From assembly GCA_031417495.1 (NCBI GenBank), contig JANOVQ010000620.1, positions 1 to 48,077 on the forward strand: a DNA stretch of 48,077 bases. Reading direction: 5' to 3'. This document shows, in pieces, positions 26,401-31,790 of the stretch. Origin of the DNA: Pseudomonadota bacterium. GTDB lineage: Bacteria > Pseudomonadota > Gammaproteobacteria > Ga0077536. The position numbers were made by a program, and so were the translations under genes. Within the stretch, counting starts at the first letter, position 1, and the number at the start of each line of letters is the position of its first letter. The notes under the pieces were generated by a model. That model saw nothing but the letters and a program-made list of their open reading frames with translations. It did no database searches and had not been told where the DNA came from.

Positions 26401-26856
26401 CGCTGCGAGCGCGCGGATCGCGCCGGGATCTTCCGGCAGCGGTCCGGTGGCTGGCATCACTGGCACGCCCGAGGCTTCCGCCAACCCCCTGGCCGCGACC
26501 TTATTGCCCAGGGTGCGCATGACGGCCGGCGAAGGACCGATGAAGATCAATCCTGCCGCGGCGCAGGCCTCCGCAAATTCGGGCCGCTCCGAGAGGAAGC
26601 CATAGCCTGGGTGGATGGCATCTGCGCCCGCTTCCAAGGCAATGCGAATGATATCTTCGCCATCCAGATAAGCTTGCACGGGGGCTTTGCCCTTGCCGAC
26701 CAGAAACGCTTCATCCACTTTGAAGCGATGCAAGGCAAAGCGATCCTCCTGCGAATAGATCGCAATGCTTTCAATTTCGAGTTCAGCGGCGGCACGCATG
26801 ACTCGGATCGCGATTTCGCCACGATTGGCCACCAACAGACGTTTTATTTTGCGCAT
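23413..26856 (-). CDS. pyc: pyruvate carboxylase (single-chain)
   Basis: The domain order is biotin carboxylase (KRLLVANRGEIAIR), a carboxyltransferase TIM barrel (FHTHDTSG), then a biotinyl domain (LEAMKMQT). ATG 26856 is preferred; GTG 26871 is the alternative. Confidence 0.93.
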   Translation of the reverse strand: MRKIKRLLVANRGEIAIRVMRAAAELEIESIAIYSQEDRFALHRFKVDEAFLVGKGKAPVQAYLDGEDIIRIALEAGADAIHPGYGFLSERPEFAEACAAAGLIFIGPSPAVMRTLGNKVAARGLAEASGVPVMPATGPLPEDPGAIRALAASIGYPLMLKASWGGGGRGMRVIEDETTLLELVAVGRREAAQAFGNGEVYLEKLIRRARHVEVQVIGDTHGNMVHLFDRDCTVQRRNQKVIERAPSMFLNEAQRTAVCASALKLCRAAGYSNAGTVEFLQNADSGEVYFIEVNPRIQVEHTVTEEITGVDIVKAQIRIAEGATIGEIDSGVPQQADIRCNGFAMQCRITTEDPENNFIPDYGTITAYRSPAGFGIRLDAGTAYAGAQITRFYDSLLVKVTAWGTTPDETTARMLRALREFRVRGVVTNLRFLEQLLRHPDFAAARYCTTFIDTTPELFDFEHRQDFATPLLRFIGEVIVNGNAAVKGRPRPTTLLIPEAPALLREPTPPGTRQLLQQLGPQKFADWMLAQPRVLFTDTTFRDAHQSLLATRMRSYDMLQVASAYAELLPDLFSIECWGGATFDVAMRFLHECPWQRLRGLRERMPNVLLQMLLRASNAVGYTNYPDNVVEHFVQQAAHEGIDVFRIFDSLNWVENMRVAIDAVVASGKLAEGAICYTGNLSDPTCTKYDLKYYVGLAKELAQAGAHVIGIKDMAGLCRPAAAYTLVKALKDEVGLPVHFHTHDTSGISAASVLAAVEAGADAVDAAMDAFSGLTSQPNLGSLVEALRHGPRASGLNPDRIRTLSSYWEQVRGCYTAFESEIRAGASEVYVHGMPGGQYTNLREQALALGIAAARWPEVAKTYAQVNEMFGDIIKVTPSSKVVGDMALMMVTSGLTPADVQSADTEITFPESVVSFFRGDLGQPYQGFPAPLQRKILKDEVALTTRPGANLPGVDLEAARKEAERSVQRAISEAELASYLMYPKVFIDYAATQREFGDLTPLPTSVFFYGMEAGQEINVVMGRGKALIIRYMGSSDPHDDHHRSVFFELNGQPRPIKVADLSRVKPRAPQPKAERDNPLQLGAPMPGVITQIAVKVGDTVARGEILMTLEAMKMQTSIRAEQAGKIEQIAVTIGQQVDAKDLLVVTA

Positions 26857-26878
26857 GGGCTTTGTATACACTCGCTTG

Positions 26879-28375
26879 ATGAGTGTGAAGGAAAGAAGGC
26901 CGCCGAGGCAGCGTGGTTCGCGACCGACTCTACACGAGCACTGGTGGCCAAGAAAGGCGGCGGTGGGGCGTGGCCTGCTGTGCGTGCTCGCCGTCAGCGG
27001 GTGGCTGCTGGTACCGCGCTCTGGCCTGAGCGCCCAGCTTCGCTACACCATTGCCGTTGATCGCGACCTGAAGGCGCTCCTCGTCGATGCCTGCCTCGGC
27101 GACGCGGCCCCTGCCGACCTAACCTTGAGTGCAGAAGTCCCACCGGAAATTCTGAGTGGTCTCGTCTTGGTCCGGCGGGCGCCGCACACTGCGCACTATC
27201 GGGCGACGTCGCTGGCGCACGGCTGCGCGCATTACGCGCTCGATCTTTCGCGTTTGCCGCCGGGCAATTCGCACAGTGCATTTCAGCGCTTCAGGGAGGC
27301 GATTCTGATCGATCCCACGTGGCTGCTCGCAGTGCCGCAGGACACCCAGCCGCGTACCCTGGAGGTGAACTTTCTGTTGCCGGCGAAGTACCGGATCTCG
27401 GCTCCCGCCGATCTCCAGCAAAGCGGCGTTGATCGTTGGCGTTGGCGAGTGCCTACGCGGGCATGGGCACGGGGCGGTCGTCTCGGCATCGGGCGGATGT
27501 TTCAAGCACAGGCGGCGGTCGCTGGCGCCCAGGTGGCGATTAGTCTGCTCGGGACGCCCGCAGCGGTCCGGCGTGAGTCGTATACAGAATGGGTCACGCA
27601 AATCGCGACCGCGATGACAGCGGAATTTGGTCGGTTCCCCGTCCCATCCACCCAGGTGTTAATGGTGGTACAGCCTGCCGCCAGCGAGGTCGTGCCGTGG
27701 GGTGAAGTGGTCCGCGCGGGGGCTGATGGCGTGCTGCTCTATGTTGATCGCAGCCGCACTATCGATCAGGTGGCGCGAGATTGGGTGGCCTTTCATGAGT
27801 TCTCCCATCTGCTGCATCCCTTCATGGCGCGGCAGGACAGCTGGTGGACGGAGGGCCTGGCAACTTATTACCAGAATGTCTTGCGCGTGCGCGCCGGACA
27901 GCTGACGAGCGCTGCTGCCTGGCGCGAACTGCACGCGGGCTTTGCACGGGGGCGGCGTGAGACCGACGGCGTCACAACCTTGGCCATAGCCGCGCGCGAG
28001 ATGATGGTCCGCCGCAAATTTATGCGGGTGTATTGGAGTGGTGCCGCGATCGCGTTGCTGGCGGACGTCGAATTACGCCTGCGAACCCACAATCGACAGT
28101 CGCTGGCGACAGTCCTGGACAAGTTTGCGAGCTGTTGTTTGCCGGCGACGCAGGAGTGGACAGCGCGGAAACTCATGCGCCGCCTCGATGTGATCGCCGG
28201 TGGTGCGGTGTTCGAACCGTTGCTGGAGCGTAATCTCGATTCAGTGGAGTTTCCTGATCTGTCCCCCGCGTATGCAGTGCTTGGCTTGAGCGATCATGCG
28301 AGCGAACTGGCGATCGACAGTGCGCGGGCGGCGCGGCGCCTGCGTGAGGCCGTCATGGGACACGAGGCGCCATGA
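26879..28375 (+). CDS. secreted gluzincin-type metallopeptidase (M1/M61-like)
   Basis: HEFSHLLHPF...WWTEGLATYY (HExxH followed by a downstream Glu). Signal-like LLCVLAVSGWLLVPRSGLSA. The start is uncertain: ATG 26879 is only about 22 bp from the pyc start, and GTG 26963 after AGAAAGG is a plausible alternative. Confidence 0.6.
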   Translation: MSVKERRPPRQRGSRPTLHEHWWPRKAAVGRGLLCVLAVSGWLLVPRSGLSAQLRYTIAVDRDLKALLVDACLGDAAPADLTLSAEVPPEILSGLVLVRRAPHTAHYRATSLAHGCAHYALDLSRLPPGNSHSAFQRFREAILIDPTWLLAVPQDTQPRTLEVNFLLPAKYRISAPADLQQSGVDRWRWRVPTRAWARGGRLGIGRMFQAQAAVAGAQVAISLLGTPAAVRRESYTEWVTQIATAMTAEFGRFPVPSTQVLMVVQPAASEVVPWGEVVRAGADGVLLYVDRSRTIDQVARDWVAFHEFSHLLHPFMARQDSWWTEGLATYYQNVLRVRAGQLTSAAAWRELHAGFARGRRETDGVTTLAIAAREMMVRRKFMRVYWSGAAIALLADVELRLRTHNRQSLATVLDKFASCCLPATQEWTARKLMRRLDVIAGGAVFEPLLERNLDSVEFPDLSPAYAVLGLSDHASELAIDSARAARRLREAVMGHEAP

Positions 28376-28435: not shown

Positions 28436-29212
28436 TCAAGCGACGACACGCGTCCCGAGCAGCAACTCTCGTTGCCGCATTCGCGTCAGGATCTCCAGGC
28501 CTCCCTCAATGACTGCCGTCGGATCCTCCTGACCAAGGTCGCCAGCGATTTGCGTGAGAATCGCGCGTGCAGTCTTCTCGCCTGAATCACGCACAGCAAC
28601 AAAGAGCTGGCGTGAAATTGCGTTGAGGTCGAGCACCCCATAGTGATGCGCGCGATCCCGGAACGCGACTAGATGGGTTTCTTTCGCCGGCGGCACCGCG
28701 GGTTTGTAGTCGACCGTAATTGCGTGCACTGGAAAGCGATAGGTCTCCAGGGTGTGGATGGGATTGACGACAATCTCTCCGTCCAGCAAAGCACCGAGTG
28801 GATCAATGCCAGCCATGGGCAACAGCCGTTCATCGGTGGCGATCAGGTTCTCCAGCCAATCGAAATGTGCGAGTTCGTAGAGGTAGGGTGGATCGTCAGC
28901 TGGCCGTAACCGGCGGGTGAGATAGGCGAGAAACTCACCCGGCAACCTGGCGAAGACCGGAGTCGTCGCTTGGTGTTTAAGTAAGTAATCCCGGACCAGG
29001 GTGTGCCATTGCGTGGCCGGCAGTACGTCTTTGACCCTCGGAAAGTTATTGGCGAGGAAACCTTCGATGTTGTGGAGCACGGCATGGCGGTAGACCGCGA
29101 CCCCCGCTGCGGGCAAACCTGGTGGGGCCGGAGCATGCTCAGGATCCCGCAGATGCTGCGCAAAAGCGCGTTGCGCGCGGATAAATGCGGGCTCGTTGGC
29201 GGGCGCTTTCAT
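28436..29212 (-). CDS. DUF2063 RiPP maturase partner protein (HvfC/BufC/MbnC-like)
   Basis: The N-terminal FIRAQRAFAQHLRDPE...VYRHAVLHNIEGFLANNFP is the DUF2063 pattern. Has a 4-nt overlap with the DUF692 gene. Confidence 0.8.
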   Translation of the reverse strand: MKAPANEPAFIRAQRAFAQHLRDPEHAPAPPGLPAAGVAVYRHAVLHNIEGFLANNFPRVKDVLPATQWHTLVRDYLLKHQATTPVFARLPGEFLAYLTRRLRPADDPPYLYELAHFDWLENLIATDERLLPMAGIDPLGALLDGEIVVNPIHTLETYRFPVHAITVDYKPAVPPAKETHLVAFRDRAHHYGVLDLNAISRQLFVAVRDSGEKTARAILTQIAGDLGQEDPTAVIEGGLEILTRMRQRELLLGTRVVA

Positions 29213-30060
29213 CTTTCTGCAACAGCCTGCAACAGGGGCCGTTGCGCCGCTTGTAAGCGCACGATCTGTGCAACTTCGGGGAGGATTTCTGCCAGTTCGG
29301 GAATATTCTCATCGCGCTCAAGAAGGGTGGGGAAAGTGCCCAGCTGTGCGTATGCGAAGCGCAGCAACTCCCACACGGGATCGATCACGGCTGCACCGTG
29401 AGTATCGATAATCAATCCAGAGTCAGTGCGCAGATGGCCCGCGATGTGCGCATAGGCGATGCGGGTGGCGGGGAGCTGTGCCAGAAAATCACGCGGGTTG
29501 TAGCCGTGATTCACGCTATTCACATAAACGTTGTTGATATCGAGCAAGAGATCGCAATCGGCCTCCTGCAGCACAGCGTTGATGAAGTCGATTTCGGACA
29601 TTTCCTGCAATGGCACGCAGTAGTAGGAGGCATTTTCGACTGCAATGCGGCGCTCCAGGATATCCTGCACCAGCCGGATTCGCGTGGCGAGATGGCTGAC
29701 GGCCTCGGCGGTGAAGGGCATTGGCAGGAGTTCGTAGAGGAGCCCGGACTCGCCACAAAAAGACAGATGATCCCCGTATACACGGATTTGAAACCGCTCG
29801 AGAAACTGCTTCACTTGGCGAACATAGGCGACATCAATGGGATCTGGTCCACCCAAATTCAGGAGCAGGCCGTGGCTCACCAGTGGAAAGTTGTGCGCGA
29901 TGCGCGCGAAGGCTTCGCCCAGGCGGCCACCAGCGCCTAACCAGTTTTCGGGGGCAATTTCGAGGAAGCTGATGGAGGCGGGGATTGAGATCTGCAGCGG
30001 GCCCAGATGAGCCCGCCGCAGACCGAGGCCAGCGCCATGGATCGCATGAGATTGCGCCAT
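29209..30060 (-). CDS. DUF692 / MNIO-family RiPP maturase (HvfB/BufB/MbnB-like)
   Basis: GLGLRRAHL, FLEIAPENW, SHGLLLNLGG, GDHLSF, LLPMPFT, AVENASYY, LLLDINNVYVNSVNHG and HIAGH make up the full set of DUF692 TIM-barrel blocks. Confidence 0.88.
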   Translation of the reverse strand: MAQSHAIHGAGLGLRRAHLGPLQISIPASISFLEIAPENWLGAGGRLGEAFARIAHNFPLVSHGLLLNLGGPDPIDVAYVRQVKQFLERFQIRVYGDHLSFCGESGLLYELLPMPFTAEAVSHLATRIRLVQDILERRIAVENASYYCVPLQEMSEIDFINAVLQEADCDLLLDINNVYVNSVNHGYNPRDFLAQLPATRIAYAHIAGHLRTDSGLIIDTHGAAVIDPVWELLRFAYAQLGTFPTLLERDENIPELAEILPEVAQIVRLQAAQRPLLQAVAER

Positions 30061-30096
30061 GGTTACCGGCAGGCAGTCGGGAACTGCCGAACCCTA

Positions 30097-30405
30097 TTAC
30101 TTCTGGAGATGGGGCATCGAGCAGCTGGCGCCGGCGAAAGTGCCACACACGGCCGGATCCTTGACGCCGGTCGCGAGTTTGCCACCAGAATATGCGCCCT
30201 TGCTGTCACCGCCGTAGGTAAAACCCGTCTCGTCATTGATCATGACTTTATTGCCCTGCATGTCGACGGATTCGGTCGCGACAGTCACTCCATCACCGAA
30301 ATCGACCATTTGGAACGGGTTGTCAGCATTTGCCACACTCGACAGCGCCAACACCACCGATGAGCCAATCGCCATAGCGATGGGCTTCAGATTATTTTTC
30401 TTCAT
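30097..30405 (-). CDS. Sec-signal RiPP precursor candidate (HvfA-like N-terminus, atypical two-Cys core)
   Basis: 102 aa. Signal peptide MKKNNLKPIAMAIGSSVVLALSSVANA|DNPF. The C-terminus is DPAVCGTFAGASCSMPHLQK. Strong RBS GAGGAGGAAGG. The gene lies 36 nt upstream of the MNIO gene. Confidence 0.75.
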   Translation of the reverse strand: MKKNNLKPIAMAIGSSVVLALSSVANADNPFQMVDFGDGVTVATESVDMQGNKVMINDETGFTYGGDSKGAYSGGKLATGVKDPAVCGTFAGASCSMPHLQK

Positions 30406-30627
30406 CTGACCTTCCTCCTCAATTGGAAAAAACGTTTTGCGACAACCCCTGCGCGAACCCTCAAAACGGTCGATAATCTCGTTATCCGATGCGCCGGCCG
30501 GTCGATGTCATTTGCGGCAGTGGTAGGCCGATGTTATGCCCGGTCAAAATGGCTGTCTACCGGTCGGACCGAAATCGGTGAGTGTGGGGAGTGTGGTTGA
30601 GGGATAGGGCAGGACGGGGATAAAAAC

Positions 30628-30650
30628 CCCGCCTGAAAATCTCAGGCGGG
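30628..30650 (-). terminator. strong hairpin; possible minus-strand intrinsic terminator or insulator
   Basis: CCCGCCTGA-AAATC-TCAGGCGGG is a 9-bp perfect stem. Read on the minus strand it is followed by GTTTTTATCCCC. It lies in the 311-bp divergent intergenic region. Confidence 0.4.
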
Positions 30651-30716
30651 TACGCAATATGCTGCGTAACGCTATCGCTACGGGGATGGATTTTAGAAGC
30701 GGAGTGACCTGCCGAC

Positions 30717-31790
30717 ATGGGAATAAGTCCCTTATTTACTGCGTGGTTGGATAGTTCTAGGTCGTGCCTTGGCTTAGTCCTGGCCTGCGCCCTCAGCGGC
30801 GGTTCGGCTGCGGCCGTCGACCACGCCGGTTCTGCGTTGGCCCAAGGTGATCTGACGACCGCCTTTCGACTGTTTGCACAGCGCGCTCAAGCTGGCGACC
30901 CGATCGCAGAAAACAACCTCGGCGTGCTTTACTTAAAAGGCCAGGGGACGCGGCGCGACTTTGGCGCCGCACGCGTGTGGTTTGAGCGCGCGGCGGCGCA
31001 TGGACTGCCAGGGGCCAAACATAATCTCGGCATCCTGTATTTGCGTGGGTACGGTATGAGCAAAGACCCACACCTGGCTGCGCGCTGGCTGAGCGAAGCA
31101 GCGGCTGAGGGTGATCGCGAAGCGCAGTTTTTCACTGGCCTGCTCTATTACCGCGGGACGGGAGTCACCCGTGACTTGGCGGATGCGCGAACCTGGTTCA
31201 CGCGGGCGGCTGACCAAGGTGTCACGGCGGCGGCCTACAATCTGGCCGTGATGCAGCTCCAAGGCGAAGGCGGCGGGCGCGACGAAGTCCAGGCGCGGGC
31301 CTATCTTGAGCAGGCGCAACACACCAGCACGGCGGCTGCTTTACTTCTTGGCGAGCTGTATCTGCAGCAGGCGGACATGCCTGGTCGGGGTGACCTGGCG
31401 ATGGCCATCTTCAAACCGCTCGCAGAAGCCGGCAATCCGGCCGCCCAATTTCAGTTGGGGATGATGTACGTGTTCGGTCAGGGTACGCTGCAAGATGCCG
31501 AAGAAGGTCGGTTCTGGCTGCAGCAGGCGAGCCATCTGGGATCGGCAGTGGCGCAACTGAATCTGGGCAATTTATATGCGCGCGGCGTTGGCGTGACCCA
31601 GGATCCGGTGGAAGCGGCGGCGTGGTACGCCTTGGCCGCTGCGAATGGTGAGTCCGTCGCCGATCAGAATTTGCAAAAGCTGCGCCGCGAATTATCGGGA
31701 GCGCAAATCGCGCAAGCCGAAAATATGGTTGCCACTTTGCGCGAGAAACACGCGAGTGCGGTACGTCCACCCGTGCCACCAGCTGAGTAA
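30717..31790 (+). CDS. Sel1-repeat (SLR/TPR-like) secreted protein
   Basis: There are around 7-8 tandem repeats of the A.NNLG.LY..G.GV..D...A..W...AA..G pattern, after a signal-like N-terminus. Confidence 0.85.
   Translation: MGISPLFTAWLDSSRSCLGLVLACALSGGSAAAVDHAGSALAQGDLTTAFRLFAQRAQAGDPIAENNLGVLYLKGQGTRRDFGAARVWFERAAAHGLPGAKHNLGILYLRGYGMSKDPHLAARWLSEAAAEGDREAQFFTGLLYYRGTGVTRDLADARTWFTRAADQGVTAAAYNLAVMQLQGEGGGRDEVQARAYLEQAQHTSTAAALLLGELYLQQADMPGRGDLAMAIFKPLAEAGNPAAQFQLGMMYVFGQGTLQDAEEGRFWLQQASHLGSAVAQLNLGNLYARGVGVTQDPVEAAAWYALAAANGESVADQNLQKLRRELSGAQIAQAENMVATLREKHASAVRPPVPPAE

Follow-up and report, generated by a model that had tools for sequence, protein, structure and literature searches.

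Genes and features of the cluster

The 48,077-nt contig JANOVQ010000620.1 of a Pseudomonadota bacterium (assembly GCA_031417495.1), here called the window, carries a small cluster encoding a putative precursor peptide (A), a maturase (B) belonging to the MNIO family (multinuclear non-heme iron-dependent oxidases), and a DUF2063-type partner protein (C). The three genes are co-directional on the minus strand within positions 28436-30405, and they and the parts of A are as follows.

Gene A, precursor of 102 aa: 30405..30097, minus strand; open reading frame (ORF) with its stop codon at 30097-30099, 100% identical to P0001.
Signal peptide of A, residues 1-27 (MKKNNLKPIAMAIGSSVVLALSSVANA): 30325..30405, minus strand; signal peptidase I cut predicted after Ala27 from the -3/-1 Ala rule.
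Leader-like segment of A, residues 28-46 (DNPFQMVDFGDGVTVATES): 30268..30324, minus strand; shares homology with the leader found in Lys-Cys captophorin precursors (FonA SVFQASDLGAGYMVAS).
C-terminal module of A, residues 47-102 (VDMQGNKVMINDETGFTYGGD...Y..GK.ATG.KDPAVCGTF....CSMPHLQK): 30100..30267, minus strand; putative core or cargo with many invariant positions, recurring in other architectures.
Cys87 codon of A (TGT): 30147..30145, minus strand; predicted modification site in a KDPAVCG(T/S)F motif, invariant in all homologues including one-Cys variants.
Cys95 codon of A (TGC): 30123..30121, minus strand; predicted second modification site in an (S/T)-C-S context, invariant in all maturase-linked members.
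Gene B, MNIO (DUF692) maturase of the HvfB family, 283 aa: 30060..29209, minus strand; NF003818 387 bits, PF05114 E=1.5e-96, 55% identity to FonB.
Gene C, DUF2063/HvfC-type partner (PME1), 258 aa: 29212..28436, minus strand; NF050145 217 bits, PF09836 and PF22106, 35% identity to FonC.

A 36-nt spacer (30061-30096) separates A from B. B shares 4 nt with C (tcat on the plus strand at 29209-29212, which is ATGA on the coding strand), and this overlap suggests that the two are translationally coupled.

The sequence of A consists of MKKNNLKPIAMAIGSSVVLALSSVANA followed by DNPFQMVDFGDGVTVATESVDMQGNKVMINDETGFTYGGDSKGAYSGGKLATGVKDPAVCGTFAGASCSMPHLQK. Its N terminus (MKKNNLKPIAMAIGSSVVLALSSVANA, cut ahead of DNPF) shows a positive n-region, a hydrophobic core and Ala at positions -3 and -1, and a reading of the sequence revealed neither a lipobox nor a twin-Arg motif there. 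By the -3/-1 rule it is predicted to be a classical Sec signal processed by signal peptidase I. Positions N29, P30, F31, Q32, F36 and G37 of the leader-like segment are invariant. A contains exactly two Cys, Cys87 and Cys95, both of which lie within VCGTFAGASCSMPHLQK.

Hidden Markov model searches gave no Pfam or NCBIfam match for A even at E≤1, including the models for HvfA, bufferins and DUF2282. A has no KCG motif, and the HvfA-family models NF050188 (equivalog) and NF050137 (KCGExKCG_twice domain) did not match it at E≤1. As a positive control, these two models detected HvfA, FonA, P0158, P0170, P0171 and the chimera P0128; they detected neither window-type proteins, built like A, nor leaderless ones. 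AlphaFold2, run with a 24-sequence alignment, gave no fold for A (mean predicted local distance difference test score, pLDDT, of 43.6), and a profile search of PDB sequences with the precursor family returned a best match of only E=0.5.

These results agree with most of what a first-pass annotation had read from the DNA alone. The ORF coordinates bear out the three co-directional genes with their 36-nt gap and 4-nt overlap, the -3/-1 rule agrees with a Sec signal peptide cut between ANA and DNPF, the sequence of A contains only two Cys, both C-terminal, and the model searches confirm a core unlike those of HvfA and the bufferins. Two further statements held in part. The NPF motif, which had been taken as an HvfA-type feature, is found in FonA and in many other EGKCG precursors but not in HvfA of Haemophilus influenzae itself. 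The Met and His pointed out in the C-terminal tail are present in A (Met97 and His99) but are not universal, as some maturase-linked members end in CSIKY.

B matched the Pfam family PF05114 (MbnB_TglH_ChrH / DUF692) at E=1.5e-96 and 323 bits (cutoff 25) and the NCBIfam HvfB equivalog NF003818 at 387.2 bits (cutoff 360). It fell under the cutoffs for BufB (258, cutoff 310) and MbnB (33, cutoff 325), and far under those for ApyH and ChrH. C scored 217 bits against the HvfC model NF050145 (cutoff 142) and contains the domains PF09836 (DUF2063, E=2.4e-22) and PF22106 (NGO1945_C, E=4.5e-18); its identity to FonC is 35%. B shares 55% identity with FonB, 50% with NgoB and 44% with HvfB, three enzymes for which the installation of 5-thiooxazoles on Cys is experimentally established (PMC13097082). 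Neither B nor C carries a signal peptide, and both should therefore be cytoplasmic.

An alignment of 58 enzymes (53 of window type together with those of loci L061 and L064, FonB, HvfB and NgoB) contained 82 near-invariant positions, including H63, D97/H98, E142/N143, D174, N177, H205/H209, D219/H221 and E248-R249-D250. The HGL, DHLS, EN, DxNN, HxAGH, DTHG and ERD motifs were near-invariant throughout. Judged by the motif alignment from which the ligands were assigned, B keeps all recognisable metal-ligand and catalytic motifs. Four positions separate the window-type enzymes from those with KCG-repeat precursors: 66 (L versus S), 73 (D versus A), 110 (E versus D) and 251 (E/L/V/I versus F), with position 66 adjoining the HGL motif.

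Precursor family and enzyme-precursor covariation

A search of 5.8 billion protein clusters returned homologues of A in 233 clusters, forming an unannotated family. The 120 listed of these 233 clusters are 71-100% identical over the full length, and none has a name beyond "hypothetical protein". Both Cys are invariant in these listed homologues (120/120), as are NPFQ, F36-G37, D48-M49, G51, D58-E59-T60-G61-F62, G65-G66-D67, Y72, G75-K76, G80, K82-D83-P84 and V86-C87-G88. A genome scan with one genome per species gave 63 loci and placed the family in about 59 species, with the related loci coming almost entirely from metagenome-assembled genomes (MAGs) of uncultured Gammaproteobacteria or Pseudomonadota. 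Among the MAGs of loci L006, L010, L025, L034, L040 and L049, some are titled Klebsiella pneumoniae, Hydrogenophaga intermedia or Dehalococcoidia and are probably mislabelled or misbinned.

In 48/48 window-type loci of other species B comes directly after A, with C behind B on every contig that extends far enough; this small ORF was found ahead of the maturase in about 50 other species. This A-B(-C) arrangement is far beyond chance. The first-pass annotation had looked to the persistence of the small ORF beside the maturase in relatives and to the conservation of its VCG...SCS tail, and had raised a distinct precursor class as a possibility. The first two are borne out by the counts above, and the third is supported in that no known model matches A and its linkage to the maturase is conserved.

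A profile of the family, run against 1.84 billion representatives, gave 52 matches only. It retrieved EGKCG precursors (P0158, P0170 and P0171) at E=5.5e-5 to 8e-4, the matches covering residues 1 to about 80. P0170 (MAKKYQLKPIAAALGTTFAVTLAASPLVNAAENPFSVTTFESGYMVA...) shares the signal peptide and the NPF leader with A, and the FonA leader SVFQASDLGAGYMVAS (from the supplementary information of PMC13097082) aligns with NPFQMVDFGDGVTVAT of A. On these alignments, the signal peptide and NPF leader of A are homologous to those of EGKCG ("Lys-Cys") captophorin precursors, with the two-Cys module of about 55 aa standing in place of the EGKCG repeats. Positions 22-58 of the profile (leader and start of the module) also matched 4-11 repeats in very large EPTP/FN3/Ig-domain proteins (P0133, P0140, P0152 and about 15 others), with E down to 7e-14; these proteins were judged unrelated, and a beta-strand-like resemblance may explain the match.

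The module follows the pattern DMQGN...GFTYGGD...Y..GK.ATG.KDP.VCG[TS]F....CS..H and was found in at least five formats.

Format 1, leader and module: the window type.
Format 2, leader, EGKCG repeats and module: L059, L061, L064 and P0128.
Format 3, signal peptide and module with no leader, 85 aa: P0124, P0173 and P0180.
Format 4, lipoprotein and module: L062, L063, P0138 and P0139.
Format 5, module with Met-rich tails or insertions (e.g., AAMGAMKEEMTGKMMDKAMEGMEKM): L047, L049, L054, L056 and P0123.

In the leaderless 85-aa forms, B and C come immediately after the precursor, and the gene order matches that of the window (Sel1, A, B, C, M61-like, pyruvate carboxylase). At these loci the module is the only possible substrate. 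Other copies have no adjacent maturase (L051, L054, L056, L057, L058, L062, L063, P0127 and P0130). In L051, L057 and L058 the syntenic position and the flanking genes are kept, B-C has been lost, and the leader has been lost too (3/3). P0127 and P0130, on the other hand, are leader-bearing orphans. Second copies occur in MAGs that also hold A-B(-C) (L047 with L008, L055 with L023, L056 with L053), and these could be matured in trans.

A few of these loci show further features. The orphan modules of L054 (complete chromosome OZ244981.1), L056, L047, L049 and P0123 carry Met-rich stretches (e.g., DMDAMKDKAVGMAKDMAKGMMG and AAMGAMKEEMTGKMMDKAMEGMEKMKDKL) whose sequences resemble periplasmic Cu(I)-binding Met motifs. 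The leader-bearing module P0127 (L075, 1281-2869) has no maturase and abuts a 419-aa GSDH/TrAA12-type (pyrroloquinoline quinone-dependent dehydrogenase-like) gene that starts at its last base, which suggests a different functional partnership for this copy. Rare one-Cys variants (P0130 and P0154) keep the first Cys only. P0130 was considered as a natural test of the target Cys and set aside as uninformative, since it has no adjacent maturase (a convergent gene is next on its 1.8-kb contig). At the chimeric EGKCG-plus-module locus L061 (8221-11347), A-B-C is followed in the same direction by genes for a Zn_protease (PF05618), a 7TM-transglutaminase and an ATP-grasp protein; this trio looks like a peptide-modification set, and a link to the cluster may or may not exist.

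In FonB, Phe250, the residue after the catalytic Asp, touches the substrate Lys and Gly and sets the selectivity around the Cys; Lys-Cys enzymes have Phe at this site, and Cys-Lys enzymes have Asp (Gadgil et al., PMC13097082). B carries Glu251 at the selectivity site, and the residues found there are distributed as follows.

Enzymes with a KCG-repeat precursor (n=5): F in 5/5.
Window-type enzymes (n=53): E in 46, L in 4, V in 2, I in 1, F in 0.

Where residue 251 is L, V or I, the second Cys lies in GE(S/T)C (7/7), and where it is E, mostly neutral residues precede that Cys (29/36), with a Fisher p of about 1e-4 on raw counts, uncorrected for shared ancestry. The chimeras, whose enzymes have Phe, carry Lys ahead of the second Cys (AKC). 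The context of the first Cys never varies. The covariation of residue 251 with the flank of Cys95 suggests that Cys95 also visits the active site, and on sequence grounds B appears to be an HvfB-type maturase retuned from Phe to Glu at the selectivity site.

Genomic setting and expression signals

The cluster is surrounded by housekeeping genes (those for pyruvate carboxylase, TrmB, ThiG, ArgRS, PriA, PBP1A and ValRS). No DoxX, exporter, regulator or copper gene was found among the neighbours scanned, in line with the earlier remark that neither an exporter nor DoxX accompanies the cluster. The adjoining genes and the candidate expression signals are as follows.

Sel1-repeat protein, divergent neighbour: 30717..31790, plus strand; Sel1 E=2.6e-50.
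HExxH (HEFSH...WTEG) protein of 536 aa, convergent neighbour: 26765-28375, plus strand; sub-threshold M61 match, E=1e-3, under the Pfam cutoff.
Shine-Dalgarno region of A (GAGGAGGAAGGTCAG ATG): 30411..30420, minus strand; nearly invariant in a 14-species upstream alignment.
Putative promoter-like site (TAGACA, 17 nt, TAACAT): 30531..30559, minus strand; from a consensus scan, with both hexamer regions conserved in the upstream alignment.
A-B spacer hairpin (GGCAGT-TCCCG-ACTGCC): 30072..30088, minus strand; the spacer folds at -13.7 kcal/mol.

A divergent Sel1-repeat protein and a convergent peptidase had been named as the neighbours, and the two fared differently. The Sel1 assignment stands, and nearly all loci that contain the maturase have a Sel1 homologue (41-81% identity). 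The gene is thus conserved with the cluster; as the whole region is syntenic, this may reflect linkage alone and does not imply membership in the system. The peptidase shows the weak M61 match only and is not conserved with the cluster. Its homologues flank the cluster in only about 1/4 of loci, and it was rejected as a component of the system. Because its annotated start overlaps the 5' end of the gene for pyruvate carboxylase, this 536-aa protein probably begins further downstream.

The Shine-Dalgarno core of A (GAGGAGGAAGGTCAGATG) is nearly invariant. The potential to form a hairpin in the A-B spacer recurs in many loci, not in all, with differing sequences, and may set the ratio of precursor to enzyme expression. 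A riboswitch or attenuator upstream of A was considered and rejected: no Rfam family reached threshold there (best 16.5 bits against a gathering score of 49.5), and the 5' untranslated region folds no better than shuffled sequence (z=+1.3). Between the divergent Sel1 start and the promoter of A, a block of ~90 nt on the minus strand (30628-30716) is conserved in at least 8 species. A strong intrinsic terminator (CCCGCCTGAGATTTTCAGGCGGGGTTTTTAT, 30650..30628) closes the block, which has no Rfam match and a fold z-score of -1.9 and may be a small RNA or act antisense to the 5' end of Sel1.

Proposed maturation and relation to known systems

We propose, with a probability of roughly 55%, that the cluster is a minimal, non-repeat MNIO-PME1 ("captophorin") system for a peptide made on the ribosome and modified after translation (RiPP), in which Cys87 and most likely Cys95 become 5-thiooxazoles of a Sec-exported, one-site copper peptide. 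The precursor would be synthesised with its Sec signal peptide, a short leader of the EGKCG family and the conserved two-Cys module of ~55 aa. In the cytoplasm, the iron enzyme B and its DUF2063 partner C would bind pre-A, and B would oxidise Cys87 (KDPAVCGTF), and most likely Cys95 (SCS) as well, to 5-thiooxazole with a change of -4 Da per Cys. Sec export and cleavage by signal peptidase I would then yield a 75-residue periplasmic peptide. With one thiooxazole pair, where the characterised relatives have at least three, the product would probably hold a single copper site.

Several observations favour this proposal. Among the findings above, these are the scores of B and C over the HvfB and HvfC cutoffs, the intact motifs of B, the conserved A-B-C order, the leaderless loci, the joint loss of leader and B-C at three loci, the invariance of the only two Cys and the covariation of residue 251. 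The N terminus of A is homologous to those of known substrates of the enzyme class of B, and Cys87 has Gly after it, like the Cys of every KCG site. A Cys-Gly dyad is what FonB prefers, and an NVCGG test peptide was modified once by FonBC (PMC13097082). The characterised relatives bind copper (PMC11252979, PMC11626156, PMC12538549, PMC13097082), and together with the Met-rich tails of the paralogues they provide hints of copper here.

Other observations weigh against it. The main caveat is that copies of the module exist without adjacent B-C, so that its function is probably not strictly dependent on the maturase. The module is, moreover, equally conserved in these orphans, and maturase recognition alone cannot therefore explain its conservation. 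The Cys pair may function without modification, either as a disulfide or as a metal site of thiolates. In HvfA and bufferin 1, some Cys escape modification and form a disulfide. Met97 and His99, potential ligands, are replaced in some maturase-linked members (CSIKY). The surroundings are those of housekeeping genes, with no copper-responsive regulator, DoxX or metal-homeostasis gene found nearby. Structural support is absent because the AlphaFold model of A is not confident (pLDDT 43.6), and the covariation statistics are uncorrected for shared ancestry. Gene content, the families of B and C, conservation, the modular homology of A and the enzyme-precursor covariation are read from the sequences; the role of A as substrate, the Cys that are modified, the 5-thiooxazole chemistry, the number of sites, copper binding and a part in copper homeostasis are features that we infer.

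It is possible, though in our view unlikely, that only Cys87 is converted to a thiooxazole, leaving the thiol of Cys95, with Met97 and His99 where present, to complete a mixed-ligand metal site in a single-heterocycle peptide. Every architecture keeps the first Cys and its context (KDP.VCG[TS]F) without change, the rare variants P0130 and P0154 lack the second Cys, Cys, Met and His are available as ligands in CSMPH, and the preference of FonB for a Cys-Gly dyad would fit Cys87. However, it is the flank of the second Cys, not of the first, that covaries with residue 251. The only one-Cys variant with a readable context (P0130) lacks an adjacent maturase and has no bearing on targeting, the characterised relatives use pairs of heterocycles per copper, and the Met and His are not universal.

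More doubtful is the idea that the module works by itself as a periplasmic mini-protein whose two Cys stay unmodified in a disulfide or thiolate metal site, with B-C being dispensable, serving another substrate or acting on paralogues in trans. The orphans that keep the full module and both Cys speak for it, some of them at the same chromosomal position after loss of B-C (L051, L057 and L058), as does the complete chromosome L054, where a pattern scan gave only an orphan copy; unmodified disulfide Cys pairs are also known in HvfA and bufferins. Against this, intact B-C lie directly downstream of A in the 48/48 window-type loci, A offers no other Cys, and B-C stay right behind the precursor even in the leaderless 85-aa variants. 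In addition, the selectivity residue of the enzyme covaries with the sequence of the module, and a PME1 protein nearly always serves the precursor beside it (PMC13097082).

That the MNIO instead performs a C-terminal or non-Cys oxidation, or forms a Cys-derived cross-link on the module, is improbable: the reactions of the MNIO superfamily are very diverse (PMC12452194) and the consistent differences from thiooxazole-forming enzymes at four near-active-site positions (66, 73, 110 and 251) might reflect another chemistry, but all characterised PME1-partnered MNIOs form 5-thiooxazoles on Cys (PMC13097082), B exceeds the HvfB equivalog cutoff and shares 55% identity with FonB, its catalytic base and metal-ligand motifs are unchanged, and MNIOs with other reactions form separate sequence clusters with other partner types.

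Within the proposed thiooxazole chemistry, a bolder reading can be offered only tentatively. The two-Cys module might be an autonomous periplasmic metal-handling mini-protein deployed in several formats (free, lipid-anchored, with Met-rich tails or behind EGKCG repeats), in which, at this locus, a retuned HvfB-type MNIO (Phe to Glu) installs a single thiooxazole pair. If so, the enzyme would build a prosthetic metal site into a partner-docking scaffold rather than a repeat metallophore, and the metal or partner specificity could differ from that of known captophorins.

The family widens the known range of MNIO-PME1 substrates by an undescribed and highly conserved two-Cys peptide, and indicates that low-Cys substrates are missed by surveys that filter on cysteine content. 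It offers a minimal substrate of natural origin that has two Cys and a single putative metal site, together with natural "mutants" for the study of MNIO substrate selection. Leader-bearing and leaderless forms bear on the need for leader recognition, and the Phe versus Glu/Leu selectivity site on how these enzymes choose their target Cys. Maturase-linked and orphan copies bear on whether thiooxazoles can be the built-in cofactor of a conserved domain as opposed to part of repeat metallophores. The family also provides a case of module shuffling that involves captophorin cores and a secreted domain not described before.

MNIO-PME1 clusters are well known (>24,000 loci). Antoine et al. listed 776 unclassified signal-peptide ORFs adjoining such MNIOs, 93 of them with 2 Cys, with no family description (PMC12452194). 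Only two members of the present family are in NCBI nr, and motif and accession searches did not find it in the parts covered of the supplementary files of PMC12452194 and PMC13097082, which is no proof of absence. No description of the precursor family, the two-Cys module or the Phe-to-Glu enzyme class was found in the literature.

With respect to the described classes, the window cluster has the adjacent, overlapping MNIO and PME1 genes of captophorins but not the Cys-rich precursor. The survey that defined captophorins retained precursors with at least 2 Cys and at least 2.5% Cys (supplementary methods). ORFs below 2.5% Cys were removed, and this family was therefore excluded (1.96% in A, 2/102; 2.35% in the 85-aa form). 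Of the features of the Lys-Cys subgroup (PMC13097082), the leader and signal homology is present; the Phe selectivity site, here Glu251, and the Lys-Cys motif are not. The C-x7-C spacing of A differs from that of the CxxxxC family (C-x4-C; Antoine et al., PMC12452194). Given its closeness to FonB and HvfB, the window MNIO should fall in the mega-cluster and not in sequence similarity network cluster 3 of adjamnio-3 (PMC12452194).

FonABC of Fontimonas thermophila, which makes the Lys-Cys captophorin fontiphorin (PMC13097082), has the same A-B-C order, a Sec signal peptide on its precursor and no DoxX among the fon proteins listed in that paper; its MNIO is 55% and its PME1 protein 35% identical to those of the window. 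The leader motif is shared (FonA FQASDLGAGYMVA, A FQMVDFGDGVTVA), with retention of the Arg15-Arg16 pair and of the catalytic motif ERD. In contrast, FonA has seven Cys in EGKCG repeats, whereas A lacks repeats and has its two Cys in a conserved 55-aa module. No similarity between FonA and A is found by BLAST, the HvfA-family models that detect FonA fail on A, and Phe250 is replaced by Glu.

HvfABC of nontypeable H. influenzae makes oxazolin (PMC11252979), the structure of which has been revised to thiooxazoles (PMC13097082). B and C score above the HvfB and HvfC cutoffs, and both precursors have a Sec signal. HvfA lacking its N-terminal region is still modified (PMC11252979), a parallel to the natural leaderless variants of the present family. 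The systems differ in that HvfA carries six KCG Cys plus an unmodified disulfide pair and no NPF leader, the hvf operon includes DoxX, and the MNIOs are 44% identical.

The bufferin systems BufABC (DUF2282 and 6/12-Cys families; PMC11626156, PMC12452194) also combine an MNIO and a DUF2063 partner with a Sec-exported precursor, and bufferins bear thiooxazoles on a subset of their Cys (PMC11626156, PMC12452194). Bufferin 1, a folded small protein with only two modified Cys, is the closest precedent for a low-Cys substrate. A is assigned neither to bufferin 1 (DUF2282) nor to bufferin 2, having no Pfam match at E≤1 and two Cys only; B lies under the BufB cutoff (258 versus 310), and the DoxX and sigma/anti-sigma genes of the bufferin systems are absent from the window cluster. 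Fusions of Buf_EGKCG with a C-terminal EF-hand_5 (PMC12452194) set a precedent for an EGKCG core with an extra domain, the layout seen in L059, L061, L064 and P0128. In the present family, however, the appended domain is the undescribed two-Cys module, and the window-type precursor has no EGKCG part.

The bulbicupramide cluster mmrABC of Microbulbifer (PMC12538549) is likewise a minimal A-B-C set in a housekeeping region, with no protease or exporter and with vertical conservation across its lineage. It differs from the window cluster in that MmrA has 5-8 Cys in EGKCG cassettes, its lineage is cultured and the copper binding of its product is demonstrated. Compared with all of these systems, the category represented by the window cluster is a known one; what is new is the precursor family, its module and the apparently retuned maturase.

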